From a virus (lineage: Duplodnaviria; Caudoviricetes), in IMG/VR virus record IMGVR_UViG_3300028833_000053: a stretch of DNA of 64,000 nucleotides; one strand, given 5' to 3'. The position numbers and the translations under genes are program-made. Position 1 is the stretch's first letter; each line of letters opens with the position of its first letter. Below the pieces are notes generated by a model that was not told the origin of the DNA, did no database searches, and saw nothing but the letters and a program-made list of their open reading frames with translations. This document shows, one piece after another, positions 24,350 to 58,050 of this stretch.

Positions 24350-24580
24350 ATTGAAACAGATTTGTGGGAACTCGGAACCTCTTTCGGAGTGGCTCATCCC
24401 TGTTCTCCAAATTCGGGATCACGCCCCGAAGGTCGCATTAATCGGACGTGGCAAGGTAGGAAACACGCCCGTTAGGTACAGGCATATATGTCCGGTATCT
24501 ACTTTCTCCAGGCGGCTCGAAGATTCGCTCCGTGGGGTCGTACCCCTGGGATGGGAACGATAATGCCCATCCATTTTTTA
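24350..24580 (+). ncRNA. candidate structured non-coding RNA
   Basis: GC-rich non-coding stretch between late motif (24337) and hairpin plus T-tract (24549-24579); several stem-loops. Confidence 0.4.
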
Positions 24581-24607
24581 TGCTTCCATTTGGTAAATAC
24601 CTATGCA

Positions 24608-25150
24608 ATGAAGTGGCTGAAACTACATAACGAAGCAACGGACCAAGAGGGCGGAGAAAGCAAGTCAATCCCGGTGGAAGTTTCCACAAGGGAGATAAAG
24701 CTCATCCAGAACTACTTGAACAAGGGAAAGCCCTTGAACGATCCCTCAAACAAGGACGCTCTTGAAACGGTCATCCGGATATTGAACGACATCGTGAACA
24801 ACTCCGACATCGAGAACCTTGAAACCTACGTCTCAAACTTCTTCTTCGACAACCTTGGAATAGAGGTGGAACTTGACCCCTATGGCGAAAACTCTGCAAT
24901 TGAACTTTCGGAGAATGGCATGATTCACCTGAGCCACTGCGAATGGGTGGACTTGTGCGATGAAGGAAAGTATGCGGACTTGGTTCAAGGCGGATTCTGG
25001 GATGACTTCTCGGGAGAGCTTGAAGAGGGTTTCATTTCCGTTGAGGACTTGAACAAGGTTCTTTCCGGAATGAAAGTTGGAAATGGAGTGAAATCCATCC
25101 AACTGAAGGAAGAGGGCGACGTTGCGAAGCTGCTGTTGAATTTTAACTAA
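24608..25150 (+). CDS. putative internal head protein (MKWLKLHNE tag)
   Basis: late motif at 24593; acidic. Confidence 0.6.
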   Translation: MKWLKLHNEATDQEGGESKSIPVEVSTREIKLIQNYLNKGKPLNDPSNKDALETVIRILNDIVNNSDIENLETYVSNFFFDNLGIEVELDPYGENSAIELSENGMIHLSHCEWVDLCDEGKYADLVQGGFWDDFSGELEEGFISVEDLNKVLSGMKVGNGVKSIQLKEEGDVAKLLLNFN

Positions 25151-25164
25151 CGAGGAAACTTGAA

Positions 25165-25626
25165 ATGAAATGGAAGAAACTGAACGAAAGCGTGAATGAC
25201 GCTGCGGAGGAACTGGCGGAAGTTGAAGAGCCCGTCAAGATAAAGGACGTGGATGAAATCGCTCCCGAAGAGGATGGCTTTGGCAACTACGCATCGGACG
25301 TAAGGCATCTCATCGACGAATACATCGGAGACCAGGCAAGGAAATACTACACCAACCGCCGCATCCCTGAAGATGAGGAAGAGGAAATGCGCGAGAACCT
25401 TGTCGGTGTGTACGTCAAGTTCGAGTATTGGGCTCCGGAAGACGAGGATTATGAAGCGGGTTATGACGATGGTGAGGTGCTGTTCATCATTGACAAGACC
25501 GACGGTAGCCTCTGCAACGTGGACTGGTTCGAGTGCAACTATCCAGACAACGTTTACGATGAGGTGGAAGACGCGGCGTACAAGTATCTCGGAGTGAAGA
25601 AGGGCATTAATTGCTGCCCGGACTAA
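25165..25626 (+). CDS. putative internal head protein (MKWKKLNES tag)
   Basis: GAGG RBS; acidic. Confidence 0.65.
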   Translation: MKWKKLNESVNDAAEELAEVEEPVKIKDVDEIAPEEDGFGNYASDVRHLIDEYIGDQARKYYTNRRIPEDEEEEMRENLVGVYVKFEYWAPEDEDYEAGYDDGEVLFIIDKTDGSLCNVDWFECNYPDNVYDEVEDAAYKYLGVKKGINCCPD

Positions 25627-25658
25627 TCAATTTGACAAACAAGAAGGTGAAACAAACA

Positions 25659-26039
25659 ATGACAACAGAACTATATGCAAATTTCGTTGACAATGGACAG
25701 GAGAAAGCCACCAAGTTCCTCATTTCAGATGAATGGGCGAGCGTTGAGGAAATCCTGAAGAAGGACGCGGTTTTCTCCAATCCAAAGTACATCAAGATTG
25801 AGGACGTGCCAAAAGATCTTCCCAACCTCACAAGGTTCCTGCGCGACAGGAGCTGTCTTACGGTGCGCGTGTTCGACTATGACAAGGCTACCAAGACCAC
25901 GGGCAATGGACTTGCCTCCATGGTCATCCTGATTCAGGGAACTTCCAACCAGATAATCACCATGAAGAAGCTCTCCGGTGGCTACAAGGACGAGGACTTC
26001 ATGACGCAGCTCAATCCAGTGTTGGCAAAGGTCAGCTGA
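25659..26039 (+). CDS. hypothetical protein
   Basis: AAGGTG RBS, ATG 25659. Confidence 0.6.
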   Translation: MTTELYANFVDNGQEKATKFLISDEWASVEEILKKDAVFSNPKYIKIEDVPKDLPNLTRFLRDRSCLTVRVFDYDKATKTTGNGLASMVILIQGTSNQIITMKKLSGGYKDEDFMTQLNPVLAKVS

Positions 26040-26053
26040 TGGAGGGCAATCCC

Positions 26054-26245
26054 ATGTGGAAGAAATTGAATGAAAGCGGTGGTGAAGCCACGGAAGAGGA
26101 AATCAACAAGGACATTGAAAACGTATATTTCCAACTTGAAGCCATCAGGCAGAAACTTTTTCGCAGCATGGACGTTAAACTCAGAACGAAGTTCATGAAG
26201 CCAATTTGCAATTTGATGAGCATTTTAGACTACGAATTTGACTAA
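26054..26245 (+). CDS. small putative internal head protein (MWKKLNES tag)
   Basis: GGAGGG RBS, shared N-terminal motif. Confidence 0.55.
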   Translation: MWKKLNESGGEATEEEINKDIENVYFQLEAIRQKLFRSMDVKLRTKFMKPICNLMSILDYEFD

Positions 26246-29855: not shown

Positions 29856-31847
29856 TCAGAATTCCGTCAACACGTCATATTCCTCTTCACCATCATCCCA
29901 ATCCGTGCCATTCATGAAGTCAAAGGTCTCGTTCACGGAGAAAAACTCCCGCTTCATGCCATGCCCCCACTGGCGGTTTCCATAGAACAACTCGTCCTGG
30001 GGAATGTCCCTTTCCGAACCATCCAATTTGATTATCCTATGCTCTTCAAGATTGCCCAGCTGGGAAATGATGCTCTTGTTTGCCGGTAGGTTCAAAGTCT
30101 CTTCAATGAGGCTCTTGTCAAATGGACTTGTGTATGCTACGGATTCTGGTAGAATCCGATCCATTTTCGTCTTGAAAGCCTTTGTCACAGCATAGTGTTG
30201 CTGTATGGTGTCGGCGAAAAGCAAGTACATTCCCCACACCCACGTCAGCATATAGTCGTCATGGCACTTGTCCTTTGCGGAGAACGTTATGGAATTGCTT
30301 GTGTTCTTGCGGACAAACGTTCCCATTTCATTCACCAACAACTCGTCTGGAATCGCAATGTCAATTTCCTCGGTTGTTATAAGCTCGTTCAAGAACATGC
30401 AGGCTTCAAGTTTCGTCTTGTTCTTTGACTTCACGCCATATGTTATCTCCCCATATTTTCCCGTTGGGGAAATAGCCTGCTCATAGAACATTCTGTCCCT
30501 TGGGTACATGTAGGTGTCCATCATAATGTCCACGAAGCCTGCACCAACGCCATTGTTCTCAAATATCAAAGGCGGGAATCCATACAGTTTCAAGAACTCA
30601 TATGTGGCATAGCCAAAATCCACGAGGGTCGCCTTGGAACACGACATACGAGCGCAAAGGGATATGTGGCGGACGTCCGTAACGTCCCACACGTTCATCA
30701 CGGAAGAGTCGTTTCCAGTTCCCTCCGAAATATCCCCAGAAGCAGCATACGTCCTTGATGGATCAAATGGTTTCCAGAAATACGCCGTTATTTCCTTGTC
30801 GGGGTTCTTGGACAGATTCAACTGCGCGGGTTCTGGGAAGTTCTTTAGATTCATTCTGAAATGCTCTATGGAATCGGACGGCACAAGGGAGGCATCACCA
30901 CTTGACTTGAACTCGCACTCGAATTCCTGCATCCAACGGTTTATGCCAATCGTTGCAATTTGCTGGCGTTTCCATTCCTCGTCACGTCCAGGCACATCAT
31001 ACCACAAGAAGCGGAACGGACGCCAGTTCTCCTCAGATTCCACGTTGGGGTCGGTAGCCTGCTGCCATGTGTCATAGAACAGATTGTTGGCGGTTCCATT
31101 TGGAGTTGAAACCATGATTGCCTTTGAATCCTTGGAAGATGAAAGCACAGGGAACACGGACGCCATAAACTCGTCGGCGATTCCCTTTGGCAAGAATGCA
31201 GCCTCGTCCATCACAAGAACGTTTGCGGAGAAACCACGGCAACCTGATGAACCCGTGGCGAAGCAACGAATGATGGAGTTGTTCTCAAACTCAATGCACT
31301 TCTTGTTGTACGTTGTCACGCCAATTTTTATGGAAGAAGGACAGTACTCATAGGCAAGGCGGATACGATCCATGATTTCAATGGCAATATCCAACTTGTT
31401 TCCGCACACCATGATTCTCTTGTCTGGATGATACATCGCATACCACAAGAGGAACACGGTGTAGATTGTGGTTTTTCCCACCTGACGCGAAGCCGTAACT
31501 ATGACACGGTTGTTGTCCTAAATGAACTTGAGCAGTTCCTGCTGTTTTGGATATGGGTTCAGCGTGACAAGACCATCGCGCAGTGAAACTATCTTGAAGT
31601 ATTTTTTGCAGAAGTAAAGTATGTCCTTCTTGCAACGTTTCAATTCCTTTGCAGTTGCCTTGAACTGCTCAGGGGTCATTATCTCCTTCTCGCCAGCCTT
31701 CTTGATTGAAGCCAGCTCCTTGTCACCGTTCTTCTTGTTTGGAAGCAAAGCCGCGGAAGCCAACTATGGCTAATTGCTTTTTGGCTTGTTCCCCAAATCA
31801 AGATCGGCGAACTTGTCTATTTCAGTTTTTCCTATTTCCTTTGGCAT
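29856..31847 (-). CDS. terL: large terminase subunit (T4 gp17-like), 663 aa (3 TAG)
   Basis: PYPKQQELLKFI*DNNRVIVTASRQVGKTT, LVMDEAAF, VSTPNG, WYDVPGRDEEWK, QEFECEF, DISEG.G.DSS, HDD; ATG 31847 with GAGGT RBS. Confidence 0.93.
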
Positions 31848-48984: not shown

Positions 48985-49221
48985 TCACTGCTGTGCGCCA
49001 ATGACCTTGTTGAACATGTTTGTCAAGATGTTCCTTGAAGCGGAGCCAACAGGCGCAGTCGCAATGGCATTCAACACGCCCTGCGGATTCTTCAACGCCA
49101 CCAGCCCCGTCAAAAGGCAGTTGATTGTGTCGGCAACGCCACTTGCATCCTTCTGCATCTGCGCAGCCAGCTCCGCAGTCCAGTCAATGTTGGATTCCTT
49201 TACTATCTTCTTCCATTTCAT
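48985..49221 (-). CDS. small putative internal head protein (MKWKKIVKES tag)
   Basis: late motif at 49244, GAGG RBS. Confidence 0.6.
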   Translation of the reverse strand: MKWKKIVKESNIDWTAELAAQMQKDASGVADTINCLLTGLVALKNPQGVLNAIATAPVGSASRNILTNMFNKVIGAQQ

Positions 49222-49256
49222 GTCAAATGCCCTCGTATAGATATATTTACAGATTG

Positions 49257-53685: not shown

Positions 53686-53716
53686 CAAAAACGCCCCGAA
53701 ATTGGGGCGTTTGTTT
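53686..53716. terminator. intrinsic terminator
   Basis: aaacgcccc-gaaatt-ggggcgttt. Confidence 0.7.
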
Positions 53717-53737: not shown

Positions 53738-53953
53738 TTAATCTTCCGTGATGTTGACGTGGCAAGTTCCGCCATCTTTATATGTGACAACCAAAGTTTG
53801 GTCATCTTCAGAATCCACACCAATTACACCTGGAAGTTCATAAAGCACATCGCCAAGCTGGGTTCTCAAAAACGTGGCATGTCCCTTTTTACTCCGTATA
53901 ACTGCGGGATTCATCGGGTCTATTCCCTCTTTCACTATCTTATTCCATTTCAT
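53738..53953 (-). CDS. small putative internal head protein (MKWNKIVKE tag)
   Basis: GAGGTG RBS, shared N-terminal motif. Confidence 0.6.
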   Translation of the reverse strand: MKWNKIVKEGIDPMNPAVIRSKKGHATFLRTQLGDVLYELPGVIGVDSEDDQTLVVTYKDGGTCHVNITED

Positions 53954-53968
53954 TTCAATTCACCTCTT

Positions 53969-56314
53969 TCAATATCTGCTGAACACGTAACCATCTTCCT
54001 CGAAGTAGTCGTTTATGAAAAGATCGCGTCCAAAAGACTCATAGTCAAAGTAGTTTCTCGCCGTGTCGGGACCCAACTGGTCAACGCCACCAAGACTGTC
54101 AACGTAATCTTCCGCAACTTGCCTGTCGGACTCGTACTCTCCCTGGTCATAGCCATCGTTGTCGTAGTAGTGGTCTGGGTCTTCAGGCTCGCCCTCGGAG
54201 TCCGTGTTGTCGGGGTCTCCGATGTGGAAATCATACATCAAGTCACGTCCAAAGGAATCGTAGTCAAAGTACATGTCAAGGTTCTCCTGACCAAGACTGT
54301 CCCAACCCATGCTGTCAACAATGTGGTAGGCGAAATCCTCTGCGGAGTTAAACTGTCCCTGATACGCATCGTGGAAATCGTCAATGCTGTCATTGTCAGT
54401 GTAGCTGACATAGGCGGCATAGGCATCCTTCTCCGAATCGTCCATCATGTAGTATTCGTTGATTTTGTCAAACTCCTCCTCGGTTGGCAAGCCACCTTCG
54501 TGATACCACTTCTCGGGGAAGTTCTCATAGTCCTGAACCATGAACTCTGGGTCTTTCTCGTCGGAATGAAGTTCACGGCAAGCATCCACGAATTCCTCGT
54601 AGGTGTTGTAGTCGGAAAGGGTTATCCACTTTCCGTCAATGGAACCGTTGTTGTACTTGGCGTATGTTCCAACGTAGATTTTGGGTTCTCCCAAGTCAAC
54701 GTCACCATCGGCTTCCTTCACGACCTTCTTGTTTGACTCGCCATAGCAGTCCAACGCCTGATAAACCTTGTCAAGCTGGCGTTGCATCCAAATCTTGTCG
54801 ATGCGGTCGCCGCTCTTTCCATATTGGACGCAAGCATCACCATAGTCGTTGATGATGTTCTTGACGTCCGCCGTTCCTTCCTTCACAATCTTCTTCATCG
54901 TGTTCTTCCTCGTAGATTCATTCAATTTGTTAAACTCCGCATAGAACTTGCCCAACCTGTTGCGCCACTTGATAGCCACCTTGTCGTCAGTCATTGATGT
55001 TGCTCCGGCGCGAACGAGAGAATACAACGTGTCAAGATCCTTCTTGCCATTGATTTCAAGTTCCCAGTTCTTGTCGGAGGAATCATAGAACTCCTCCAAC
55101 TTGTCAACCCACTTTTGGGCATCGTCAAACTTCAAGCTGGCAAGGTGAATCAAACCATAAAGCTCGTCAAGTTCCTTGCGGCTCCTGATTTCCAGATTCC
55201 ACTTCATTCCCTTCTCAAGCTCTTCCCAGTTCGTGGATTCCTCCATTCTTCCATTGTAGGTTGAAACCCAATTCTCGAAATCATCCAGCAACTTGCCAAT
55301 CAAAAGCTCTTCGTCCCTGCTGCAGGTCTTGTTCTTCCAATCATGCTCGATGTCAAACAAACGGTCGCGCAATTCCCTCAACTCAAGGTCGCCCTGTTTC
55401 TCTGAAACGCCATGATGCTTGACATCGCGGATTACCCTCTTCTTGGCGGCTTCAATAGCCCTCTTGAACTTCTGAAGTTCGGACGTCTCCTTCACAACTT
55501 TCTTCATATTGGTTTTCCTCGTGGATTCCTTTAGTCCGGCAAAAAGGGATTCTATCTTTTCCAGTTCATCCGGTGTTGCATCCAACCTTCCATATTCCAT
55601 GTCAACGATGATTCCGGTCTCGCATTCACCCTTCGTCTTGTACCTGTTTCCTGGTATGTACTTTCCGGTTTCGTTGTCAAAACCCACCCACCAGCTCTTT
55701 CCGTCCAATGCGGTTCTCTGCTTTGCTGAATACCTTTTGGTTATGTCCTTCAAGGGCAACATTGACTCGTTCACAATATCTTCTTCTTCTTCCAAAGACA
55801 AAAGTTCGGGCGCCGTTTGCCTGAGATATTCCCTGTCCTCGTCTGTGAACGACCCCATGCTGGAAAGATAATCCTGAACGGCCCAAACCTTGTCCTCGGA
55901 TTCATCCCATGACGGGTTCACTCCACTTGGCTTGAACTCCTTTTCCTTTTCAGCCAAAAACGTTTCCAAGTTGCCAATGGATTCCTGCACATATCTTGGG
56001 CCGTCATCGTCAATGACGTGGTCTTCCTCTTCATGATAGCCAACGTCCTTGAATTTCCTTGCGTCAATCGCAGCAAGGAACTCAGGAATTTGATCCTTTG
56101 ACATGAAATCCTCATCGTACAGCTCATATTCCTTGAGTTCATAGTTCACCCTTCCGATTGGCGCACCTCTGTAGTAGATTTCATATCCATGGTCATAGCC
56201 ACCAAGAGCCATTTCCCAGTTTCCGCATCGGCCACGCTCGCCGTTGTCGTCAATCTTATCCATTACCTTCGCAAGGGCGGAGAAATTAAGTTTGGATTCA
56301 TTCATCTTTTTCAT
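53969..56314 (-). CDS. multi-module polyprotein with C-terminal ArdA anti-restriction domain
   Basis: C-terminal ~240 aa: PKIYVGTYAKYNNGSIDGKWITL...DPEFMVQDYENFP...YFDYESFGRDL...DGYVF matches ArdA; repeated xxES linkers. Confidence 0.85.
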   Translation of the reverse strand: MKKMNESKLNFSALAKVMDKIDDNGERGRCGNWEMALGGYDHGYEIYYRGAPIGRVNYELKEYELYDEDFMSKDQIPEFLAAIDARKFKDVGYHEEEDHVIDDDGPRYVQESIGNLETFLAEKEKEFKPSGVNPSWDESEDKVWAVQDYLSSMGSFTDEDREYLRQTAPELLSLEEEEDIVNESMLPLKDITKRYSAKQRTALDGKSWWVGFDNETGKYIPGNRYKTKGECETGIIVDMEYGRLDATPDELEKIESLFAGLKESTRKTNMKKVVKETSELQKFKRAIEAAKKRVIRDVKHHGVSEKQGDLELRELRDRLFDIEHDWKNKTCSRDEELLIGKLLDDFENWVSTYNGRMEESTNWEELEKGMKWNLEIRSRKELDELYGLIHLASLKFDDAQKWVDKLEEFYDSSDKNWELEINGKKDLDTLYSLVRAGATSMTDDKVAIKWRNRLGKFYAEFNKLNESTRKNTMKKIVKEGTADVKNIINDYGDACVQYGKSGDRIDKIWMQRQLDKVYQALDCYGESNKKVVKEADGDVDLGEPKIYVGTYAKYNNGSIDGKWITLSDYNTYEEFVDACRELHSDEKDPEFMVQDYENFPEKWYHEGGLPTEEEFDKINEYYMMDDSEKDAYAAYVSYTDNDSIDDFHDAYQGQFNSAEDFAYHIVDSMGWDSLGQENLDMYFDYDSFGRDLMYDFHIGDPDNTDSEGEPEDPDHYYDNDGYDQGEYESDRQVAEDYVDSLGGVDQLGPDTARNYFDYESFGRDLFINDYFEEDGYVFSRY

Positions 56315-56679
56315 TTTTCACTGTCCTCTGGAGACCACAAATGCAAATCGTCACCGTCTCTGCCATTGATGAAACAATAGATGTTGCCATCATCCTGGAA
56401 ACCATACCCGCTATTGGGCAATGGACCGAATCTATTGTAATCCAGCTTGTCCATTTCACGAATGTCCGGAAATTCCACCCACAATTCCTCCATACGGAAC
56501 ATCATATCCTCTTCTTCAAGCTCCTCAGCGTCCTTTCCAATCAAGTCCCTTATCCTTGACGTGAATTCCTCAACGCTTTGCTTGTCCCTTGCGTAGAATA
56601 TGCCGTATGAACCAGTGGCGATGTCGCGGTAAAGCATCGCATACATCGTCTCTTTCTCGGAATCTTTATACTGTTTCAT
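56311..56679 (-). CDS. hypothetical acidic protein
   Basis: late motif at 56715; overlaps polyprotein start (ATGA). Confidence 0.6.
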   Translation of the reverse strand: MKQYKDSEKETMYAMLYRDIATGSYGIFYARDKQSVEEFTSRIRDLIGKDAEELEEEDMMFRMEELWVEFPDIREMDKLDYNRFGPLPNSGYGFQDDGNIYCFINGRDGDDLHLWSPEDSEK

Positions 56680-56730
56680 CTGCAAATATCTTTCTCTTTA
56701 CATTGGTCAAAGAATATTTACAATAAAACA

Positions 56731-57185: not shown

Positions 57186-57986
57186 TTATTTACTCCCTTT
57201 ATAGTTTTTATGATTCTTATGGTTTTTATGCCAAGACTCCTTCATCTTTCGTTTGGTTTCTTCTGATAAATGTTTACCGTACATTGGATTGTTTTGTCCT
57301 TTCCTTTCATTAGACAACTTTAATTTTGCTTCATCCGATAAATGTTTTCCCTTACTCCAAGTATTCTTTCCTTTAAGTCTCTAGGATATTTTTATTTTTG
57401 ACTCTTCTGAATGGTGTTTTCCACCAAATCCAGGTTTTCTCCCCTTTAATGATTTTGCACGTTTCTATATTGTTTCTGGTGAAGGATGTGAAAATTGATA
57501 TGGTAATGGTCTCCCTATATTAGCCTATCTTATTTTCTCTATGTGTTCCTATGATAATTTTCTCCCTTTATGAGACATGGACAATTTTTTGCGATGTTCT
57601 TCTGAAAATTTTTTACCTTTATGTGCCAATGATAATTTCAATTTGGTTTCATCAGACAAATGTTTTCCTTTATTTAATTCTGAAACTTTCATTCTGACAA
57701 ATTCATAAAGTCTTGAATTGAATCTGAATCCTCTATATTGATTTTTATTACTGGTTCTCATCATAGTTATTGCCGTCCACATTCCTTGCGTATTATAAAT
57801 CTTGGCTAATAATAAATGACAAATATAATGTTCTCTAGCAGTTAGAAAAACCAAATTAGAAGACTCATTAGAACCTCCTTCTGATTTTGGTATTATATGA
57901 TGACTTTCGCAATAACAATCATCACGATTAATTGGATTCTTCCGACGCTTTTCAATAAGCGCATTGTAAACCTTTAAGTAGTTCAT
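57186..57986 (-). mobile_element. free-standing HNH homing endonuclease with NUMOD3 repeats, 266 aa (4 TAG)
   Basis: ESHHIIPKSEGGSNESSNLVFLTAREHYICHLLL; repeated KGKHLSxExK.K.S; strongly AT-rich. Confidence 0.85.
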
Positions 57987-58050
57987 AATTATTTTTACCT
58001 TTATTATTGTGACATGTGCGTGTCACATAAGTATTTACCAAAATTACAAT

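Follow-up and report, generated by a model that had tools for sequence, protein, structure and literature searches.

Joints within a modular ArdA polyprotein match the start cassette of separate genes in a giant phage

The window analyzed here, a 64,000-nucleotide (nt) stretch of the IMG/VR virus record IMGVR_UViG_3300028833_000053, encodes on its minus strand (53969..56314) a modular polyprotein of 781 amino acids (aa), recognized from its open reading frame (ORF) and translation, with an ArdA antirestriction domain near its C terminus. Two of the joints between its modules consist of the same DNA element as the start region of separate genes in this genome, comprising a ribosome-binding site, an ATG, and a short leader peptide. 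We consider it rather likely that these joints are translated, in-frame copies of that start cassette, that the ArdA locus is a hot spot at which leader-bearing modules are joined, separated, and exchanged, and that the leader peptide probably serves capsid loading and cutting by a gp21-type head protease. The source record is a 433,895-bp virus with direct terminal repeats, which we take to be a T4-like megaphage of the rumen because it carries a gp21-type prohead protease, a gp23-type capsid protein, a terminase, NrdD, SbcC, and a Dda-like helicase.

Joints and gene starts share one cassette

From the N terminus, the polyprotein consists of module A (aa 1 to ~262), joint 1, module B (aa 277 to ~463), joint 2, module C (aa 480 to ~524), a short joint 3, and the ArdA domain with a C-terminal extension (aa ~535 to 781). 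The sequence-only reading had singled out two linkers, TRKTNM and TRKNTM, as containing a ribosome-binding site and an ATG in ACGAGGAAAACCAATATG (ATG 55507) and ACGAGGAAGAACACGATG (ATG 54898), each followed by MKK(V/I)VKE, and both are present, on the minus strand and in frame within the 781-aa protein. Joint 1 (55487..55534, minus strand) reads L-K-E-S-T-R-K-T-N-M270-K-K-V-V-K-E and has a Shine-Dalgarno (SD)-like ACGAGGAA at 55522-55515 and its ATG at 55507-55505; its DNA from 55528 to 55487 is GAATCCACGAGGAAAACCAATATGAAGAAAGTTGTGAAGGAG, which encodes E-S-T-R-K-T-N-M270-K-K-V-V-K-E. Joint 2 (54878..54925, minus strand) reads L-N-E-S-T-R-K-N-T-M473-K-K-I-V-K-E, with ACGAGGAA at 54913-54906 and the ATG at 54898-54896, and its DNA from 54919 to 54878, GAATCTACGAGGAAGAACACGATGAAGAAGATTGTGAAGGAA, encodes E-S-T-R-K-N-T-M473-K-K-I-V-K-E. 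The distance from GAGG to ATG is 9 nt at both. Joint 3 (54713..54745, minus strand), immediately N-terminal of ArdA, is shorter, Y-G-E-S-N-K-K-V-V-K-E; its core, GESNKKVVKE at aa 525 to 534, has no SD and no ATG, that segment being absent, and in relatives such as P0018 and P0008 this junction takes the long form including the Met. The polyprotein itself starts with MKKMNES where the joints have MKK(V/I)VKE, and its own SD, AGAGGA, lies in the final codons of the upstream gene E, just as the joint SDs lie in Thr-Arg-Lys codons. As a separate observation, a close relative (run X5; protein P0002) carries an 18-nt tandem duplication in the short joint (window position 54732, STKKVV-STKKVM), which shows slippage at the Lys-rich joint sequence.

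The same cassette heads separate genes. On the plus strand, a stand-alone copy, ACGAGGAAACTTGAA-ATG, starts a 153-aa gene (25150..25626) whose product begins MKWKKLNES and whose untranslated leader, if read in frame, gives T-R-K-L-E; the site at 25150-25167, 5' of this real gene, is ACGAGGAAACTTGAAATG. On the minus strand, TGTAAATAT is followed by ACGAGGGCATTTGAC and the ATG of a 78-aa gene (48985..49251) with the start MKWKKIVKES, and a 71-aa gene (53738..53953) with the start MKWNKIVKEG and the SD AGAGGTG begins 13 nt past the polyprotein stop. Leader starts were also confirmed on DNA in the ArdA gene of the related genome G001, at genome positions 82413, 40622, 134152, 129420, and 158208, and in L002; the genes at 82413 and 40622 have in-frame TAG codons and GTAAATA upstream. 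GAGG sits 7 to 10 nt 5' of the ATG in all stand-alone leader genes checked on DNA (AGAGGTG in the case of 53953), whereas the genome-wide figures are 12% for the first ATG of a long ORF and 2.8% for ATGs at internal positions. An alignment of 16 starts and joints resolves into one cassette common to true starts and joints. The earlier proposal that the joints bear the tag of stand-alone genes holds for the cassette; the peptide is slightly longer in the stand-alone genes, with an aromatic residue: MKWNKIVKE (53953), MKWKKIVKE (49221), or MKFKKIVKE (genome 82413 and relatives). Window positions 24488-26245 (plus strand) hold a run of small acidic genes with the leaders MKWLKLHNEA, MKWKKLNES, and MWKKLNES, each with either GAGG 9 nt before the ATG or the GTAAATA motif, and without a Pfam match.

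How specific is this likeness? A degenerate 42-nt pattern derived from joints 1 and 2 matches those two sites alone, with 0 matches expected. The shorter pattern ACGAGGR-N8-ATGAAR has four matches in the window against 0.05 expected, namely, the gene starts at 25150 and 49236 and the joints at 54913 and 55522, which bears out the claim that the joints carry the ribosome-binding site used at 25150-25167. The 8-mer ACGAGGAA alone is weak evidence because acidic codon runs may produce many copies: it occurs 15 times in the window against 2.6 expected, and many of these sites are presumably acidic codons of the xAC-GAG-GAA type. Its frequency, together with a genomic codon usage in which 31% of Thr residues are encoded by ACG and 26% of Arg residues by AGG, would favor the view that the resemblance is unrelated to gene starts and simply follows from coding for a Thr-Arg-Lys linker, basic and flexible, ahead of Met-Lys-Lys. 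We regard such a coincidence as extremely improbable, since ACGAGGR-N8-ATGAAR also stands in the untranslated leaders of two separate genes, the likeness runs for ~40 nt and into the leader, and the same modules are found with the leader as their true N terminus. The likeness between joints and start cassette is not due to chance.

Modules fused, separate, and exchanged among relatives

Modules that occur separately or reshuffled in relatives, which the sequence-only reading had proposed to look for, were found. The DNA-level comparisons cover four loci (the window, L087, L088, and L089) out of roughly 200 database homologues. A first homologue search gave 84 proteins with widely differing architectures, nearly all of which hold joints of the type E-S-T-(K/R)-(K/R)-x-x-K-M-K-F-K-K-I-V-K-E. 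The related-locus search in IMG/VR returned nothing with P0001 as the sole query and three relatives with alignment A1 as the query; one metagenome scan and one genome scan returned distant ArdA genes alone (at most 51% identity), with the leader on none of the loci checked, and a search of GenBank phages likewise returned only distant ArdA matches.

The three DNA relatives (L087, corresponding to G002, 418 kb; L088, corresponding to G001, 414 kb; and L089, an 8.6-kb contig) share the position of the gene, between a conserved 149-aa gene and nrdD, and differ in its modules. The window has A - B - C - ArdA (781 aa), G002 has A1 - TAG - E - F - ArdA (584 aa if TAG is Gln), G001 has the leader, half of B, and ArdA (350 aa), and L089 has A1' - E - ArdA (512 aa). 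When homologues were compared with P0001, 131 of the 194 BLAST breakpoints fell in three joint zones that cover 11.5% of the protein; these counts, like the joint counts given below, come from sequences related by descent, which are not phylogenetically independent, and are descriptive.

Module E is present in the window as a separate gene of 122 to 124 aa (56311..56685, minus strand), whose TGA stop overlaps the polyprotein ATG (ATGA) and whose last codons, CCA GAG GAC, hold the polyprotein SD. Its product matches internal or first modules of the ArdA proteins of dozens of relatives (blastp E values of 1e-13 to 5e-20), among them the internal module of L089 (1e-14). A separate E gene here and an internal E elsewhere is the strongest single result in favor of independent modules. 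At this overlap, the E gene ends in GAA AAA TGA (56305-56320, minus strand) and the polyprotein lies in the -1 frame; it is tempting to speculate that a programmed -1 slip at GAAAAATGA, with the A run ahead of the stop codon in the P site, would join the two products into one chain, although the A run is short for this.

Further arrangements point in the same direction. The ArdA gene of G001 starts in the order TGA, GTAAATAC, AAGAGGA, ATG, and the leader is attached directly to ArdA in P0103, P0104, P0154, and P0183 (251 to 256 aa; this search was limited to shorter proteins). Many database proteins of 379 aa begin with MKFKKIVKEARLP and have the order leader - E - ArdA. G002 also encodes a second polyprotein, without ArdA (L194, G002:C1:167090-170107; 451 aa, one TAG), with the short joints NENKFRKIVKE and AESKKIVKE, and its YPAANGCT module stands leader-first on the ArdA protein P0097 as well.

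The states observed can be arranged in a series, from spaced genes (the ArdA protein and the 71-aa gene), through the ATGA overlap of E and the polyprotein, and a TAG followed by GAGG and ATG in G002, to full in-frame joints in the window and short joints from which the initiation region is deleted. In the G002 case (L087:4290-4330), an in-frame TAG parts A1 from E, and GAGG lies 8 nt before the next ATG (GATGAGGATTAGGATATGGTGAACGAATCC), so that two proteins would be made if TAG is a stop and one fused chain if it is Gln, a possible timing switch. Such intermediates could also be read in the opposite direction, with the long polyprotein being older and the stand-alone leader genes arising from stops, frameshifts, or promoters inserted at ATG-bearing joints. 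The G002 TAG and the ATGA overlap would fit this order of events, as would a stand-alone leader gene of G002 whose untranslated leader reads E-S-T-L-R-K-Q-K in frame. We nevertheless consider fission as the origin of these genes unlikely, given that some leader genes, at genome positions 40622, 82413, 134152, and 158208, lie far from any polyprotein, have bodies unrelated to one another, and come with a promoter motif of their own and that the "EST" likeness of the G002 leader is not found in its G000 counterpart. Judged from these loci, fusion, fission, and swapping all seem to occur. The idea that the polyprotein grew by fusing tagged mini-genes is therefore upheld as far as the shared DNA element and the separate and reshuffled modules are concerned, and the change may have run in either direction.

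In the reading favored here, the joints are copies of the start cassette (GAGG, ~9 nt, ATG, and the leader M-K-(F/W)-K-K-(I/V)-V-K-E), which stands at the head of separate genes in this clade of T4-like, TAG-recoded megaphages; a late-type promoter motif precedes several of these genes. We infer that homologous recombination between the ~40-nt copies would be the simplest exchange route and that the reading frame would be kept; on fusion, the formerly untranslated SD region would become S-T-R-K-x-x and the old start an internal Met. In T4-type phages, less than 50 bp of homology is enough for recombination, and in RB49 and phi1, cassettes that include an SD and an ATG are shown crossover sites for module shuffling (PMC2839356). 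These promoter-early-stem-loop (PeSL) cassettes (PMC2839356, PMC4122927) resemble the present one in being short and conserved, in including the SD and start codon, in flanking variable genes, and in being recombination sites. They differ in that PeSLs are intergenic and consist of early sigma-70 promoters and a stem-loop terminator, whereas the present cassettes carry GTAAATA, without -35/-10 boxes and without a hairpin, and extend into a coding leader that is readable in frame, such that protein modules would be joined rather than whole genes moved. The ArdA locus thus appears to work like a PeSL without being one. The present case stands out in that its joint can be recognized, down to the SD, as the start cassette of separate genes and in that the same modules are found fused, split, and swapped.

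The conserved leader and internal starts

Across 11 DNA copies of the cassette, K-(I/V)-V-K-E is constant in the leader and third codon positions vary (AAA/AAG, ATT/ATA, GTG/GTA/GTT, and GAA/GAG). Pairwise codon differences amount to 105 synonymous versus 37 nonsynonymous, and K and E are invariant with both of their codons in use. Because this variation is mostly synonymous, the leader is conserved as a peptide.

The segment upstream of it behaves differently. Of 66 distinct internal joints, 42 have the long form including the Met, about 4 have the long form without it, and about 20 have the short form, which lacks the SD/ATG segment; the upstream module ends in Glu plus a small residue in 64 of the 66. 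The form of a given junction differs between relatives, being long in some and short in others, the SD of a G002 joint has decayed to ACTGGGAAG, and in joint B of L089 the GAGG lies 17 nt from the ATG. Since the protein family persists where the SD/ATG part is missing (about 20 of the 66) or eroded (G002), that part is dispensable to it. The term "fossil" that had been applied to these ribosome-binding sites therefore suits the SD/ATG part and not the leader. Selection would now act chiefly on the peptide, with the SD/ATG piece being a relic kept in some lineages and lost in others. Where it is intact, as in the window, it could yield two nested proteins, a 512-aa one starting at M270 and a 309-aa one starting at M473, both of which would begin with a leader.

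Alternatively, the SD and ATG in the joints might be kept by selection for working internal starts, so that the nested B-C-ArdA and C-ArdA products raise the dose of the downstream modules. Both joints do combine an in-frame ATG, an SD at working distance, and open RNA. The SD spacing is identical to that of true leader-gene starts, the predicted duplex with the anti-SD is -5.9 kcal/mol at both joints (-5.8 to -7.2 at the true starts), and the RNA around M270 is about as easily opened as that at the real start (4.9 versus 5.5 kcal/mol; fourth among the gene's 65 ATGs), whereas that around M473 is moderately open (7.8 kcal/mol; rank 15 of 65), the mean for the gene being 10.9 ± 4.1. Moreover, the Met is kept in 42 of about 46 long joints, whereas the preceding five to six residues vary freely and are almost solely residues with purine-rich codons (K, T, R, N, S, G, and Q), which hints at some constraint on the initiation region. 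The joints also look all-or-none, having either the full initiation region or the whole segment deleted, and separate genes of the same form as the predicted isoforms exist. On the other hand, about one-third of the joints lack the segment with the protein family intact, and the SD is decayed in G002 and displaced in L089 joint B. SD use in the genome is weak, with a median duplex of -3.3 at first ATGs versus -2.4 at internal ATGs; 10% of the internal ATGs are as strong in duplex as the joints, and the main head genes lack a strong SD. The closest cellular ArdA homologues are from Bacteroidales, a group in which SD-led initiation is generally weak. Finally, the Met may be conserved merely as part of the leader peptide. 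We therefore view nested initiation at M270 and M473 as plausible from the sequence, and selection for it as the reason for the retained sites as rather doubtful.

Nested genes have precedents in phage heads. In lambda, C and Nu3 are nested, in-frame head genes that use internal initiation. T4 gene 21 itself gives a short form from the internal Met45, an essential start (PMC9026906). The joints resemble these systems in having an in-frame internal ATG with a ribosome site that would give a shorter product with the same C terminus; they differ in that the internal starts of T4 and lambda are shown and essential, whereas those described here are sequence predictions and are lost in many relatives.

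Head protease, late-type motif, and candidate capsid delivery

The same genome encodes a gp21-family prohead protease (Peptidase_S77, PF03420; 48 bits, cut-off 27) and a gp23-type capsid protein (PF07068; 241 bits). The protease begins with MGKLTAKKLIVES...LIKES (KKLIVES...LIKES), and the capsid protein carries ...GLFTE|AAPS, which we take to be the equivalent of the place at which T4 gp23 is cut, FLTE|AEIGG. Similarly, the modules end in a hydrophobic residue, any residue, and Glu, followed by Ser (L-K-E|S, L-N-E|S, and Y-G-E|S), and the leaders end in V-K-Glu followed by Thr, Gly, or Ala. The rule for T4 leaders (~10 to 19 residues, with hydrophobic-x-Glu before a small residue) is matched by MKKMNE|S, by the joints MKKVVKE|T and MKKIVKE|G, and by the separate genes MKWNKIVKE|G and MKWKKIVKE|S; the T4 leader sequence is not. 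Hydrophobic-x-E-[SAGT] occurs 11 times in the polyprotein versus 5.4 ± 2.2 times in shuffled sequences, and 8 of the 11 sites lie in segments with a predicted local distance difference test (pLDDT) score below 50, compared with 1 in the Glu-rich ArdA domain. In the AlphaFold2 model, which is confident at aa 10 to 93 and 541 to 781, joints 2 and 3 are within segments with a pLDDT below 50, and joint 1 is on the edge of one.

The joint peptide thus fits the Leu/Ile-x-Glu cutting rule of T4 gp21 and, we infer, a role in capsid targeting. Module end and leader end would both be cut by the gp21-type head protease of the phage, and the 9-residue leader would act like the T4 capsid targeting sequence, which is of similar length and likewise begins with MK and ends in Glu (PMC9026906). 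The chain would thus probably enter the prohead, where the protease would separate its modules, and these, among them ArdA, would be delivered together with the DNA. In T4, a capsid targeting sequence, processing by gp21, and an injected antirestriction protein, IPI*, are known (PMC9026906). Taken together, the motif matches suggest that the polyprotein is made late as cargo, put into the capsid, and cut by the protease, so that ArdA would travel with the DNA in the manner of IPI* in T4. The T4 internal proteins IPI, IPII, IPIII, and Alt (PMC9026906) and the present system have several features in common: the phage is of the T4 type and encodes a gp21-family protease and a gp23 capsid protein, the leader is short and N-terminal, begins with MK, and ends in hydrophobic-x-Glu, the cargo is antirestrictive, and the cargo genes vary highly among relatives. 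They differ in leader (MKTYQEFIAE in T4, MKFKKIVKE here) and in cargo, which is ArdA here. Moreover, T4 cargo consists of single modules and is shown experimentally, whereas the leader of the present phage recurs as a joint between unrelated modules and is known from its sequence. A literature search for ArdA together with capsid targeting or a polyprotein returned nothing relevant.

With respect to transcription, a candidate T4-like late promoter, TGTAAATAT (56714..56722, minus strand), heads a unit of the E gene, the polyprotein gene, and the 71-aa gene, which is closed by a terminator-like hairpin (53689..53712, minus strand); terminator-like sites inside the gene at the joints were not found. 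In each of the four phages compared, TTGTAAATA is found 30 to 45 nt upstream of the ArdA locus, and the prohead protease gene has GGTAAATAT at a distance of 47 nt on its 5' side. Genome-wide, [GT]GTAAATA[CT] has 64 sites, 40 of which are 13 to 60 nt before gene starts, the protease gene included; sites in the window include 56714-56722, 49243-49251, 58031-58039, and 24592-24600. The GTAAATA motif is one base apart from the T4 late promoter TATAAATA, which shows no enrichment in the window. The motif, whose function is putative, precedes both this unit and the protease gene, and in-frame TAGs occur in other leader-bearing genes. Two metatranscriptome runs of a single sheep-gut sample contain the locus at 100% identity. 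A contig from these RNA libraries spans 53775-56694, from ~20 nt past the motif to ~60 nt short of the hairpin, which is a weak hint at a single transcription unit, though not proof of transcription, and silent on translation; no internal contig ends were seen over the locus.

Several observations weigh against the reading of the joints as shuffled start cassettes with a capsid-targeting leader. Cleavage, packaging, and late timing in this uncultured phage are read from motif matches, and GTAAATA is a candidate late promoter by virtue of its position and its likeness to the T4 sequence; the capsid gene has merely GGTAAACTA. The polyprotein gene contains no TAG codon, and its neighbors, nrdD and nrdG, are not typical late genes. 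Shuffling was seen on DNA at four loci, and many of the "stand-alone" database proteins could be gene-caller artefacts, produced when a caller ends one protein at an in-frame TAG and begins the next at a joint ATG, which is what happened with P0017 in G002. Because 4 of 10 comparable synonymous sites differ between joints 1 and 2, these are not recent copies of one another, and there is no sign of recent gene conversion between them. Lastly, the Met is kept in more of the long joints than a pure relic predicts.

Going one step further, the cassette could be a dual-purpose, translatable shuffling joint, in which one ~40-nt element would simultaneously permit recombination, translation initiation, and cutting by the head protease at two places. 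Any leader-bearing gene of the phage could in that case enter or leave a capsid-cargo polyprotein in frame, and its product would still be expressed, loaded, and released, and an in-frame TAG, read as stop early and as Gln late, would switch between the split and fused states. We offer this as a tentative possibility, clearly less likely than the more limited reading favored above. A ribosome site that survives in a fused gene would be unsurprising alone. If the broader reading of the locus is true, however, a giant phage builds and rebuilds multimodule antidefense proteins by reusing the start region of small genes as an in-frame joint, with no new linkers, and the joint brings along signals for translation, capsid loading, and cutting. 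It would also explain the wide differences in the ArdA locus between close relatives and would provide a simple rule by which capsid-delivered cargo could be recognized in the sequences of uncultured T4-like phages. The dual-purpose joint, if real, would be a phage counterpart of exon shuffling for injected antidefense proteins. Since gene callers split or merge such genes unpredictably, and more so with recoded TAG, protein counts and lists of "novel small proteins" call for care.

As for the modules themselves, the ArdA antirestriction domain (aa 546 to 697; 54224..54679, minus strand) was identified by matches to Pfam ArdA PF07275 (116 bits, cut-off 27) and to PHROG 2059 (E value of 1.4e-30) and is strongly acidic by eye. 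Proteins of the ArdA class inhibit type I restriction enzymes through DNA mimicry. The nearest cellular relatives are 44 to 51% identical and almost all in Bacteroidales genomes (Muribaculaceae, Porphyromonadaceae, Bacteroides, Dysgonomonas, and Prevotella-like; loci L113 to L192), a hint as to where the module came from and perhaps as to the host group. The module is a clear ArdA, like the stand-alone ArdA (PF07275) of conjugative elements and phages. The usual ArdA, though, is a single-domain protein of ~170 aa made early after DNA entry, whereas the present one forms the last part of a 781-aa chain, with leader joints before it, and belongs to a unit that carries a late-type motif. Pfam searches gave no family for modules A, B, and E, nor for six further genes (five small leader-bearing or neighboring genes and the conserved upstream 149-aa gene), and an all-library search with modules B and C gave just 6 matches. 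The first part of the polyprotein (aa 10 to 93; 56314-56035, minus strand), also without a Pfam match, is modeled as a confident alpha/beta fold (pLDDT 75 to 90) and is the commonest shared N-terminal module of the family.

Two further observations concern other genes of the window. The terminase large-subunit ORF (29856-31481, minus strand) matches the C-terminal half of PHROG profiles alone (434 to 843 of 890), so an intron, an intein, or a recoded stop may interrupt the gene. A gene for an HNH-type homing endonuclease, with repeated GKHLS-type motifs and several in-frame TAGs, is present at 57190-57986 (minus strand) and at L089:1789-2583; it is not at the matching place in L087 or L088, and one of its TAG codons aligns with Gln in the homologous L089 copy.

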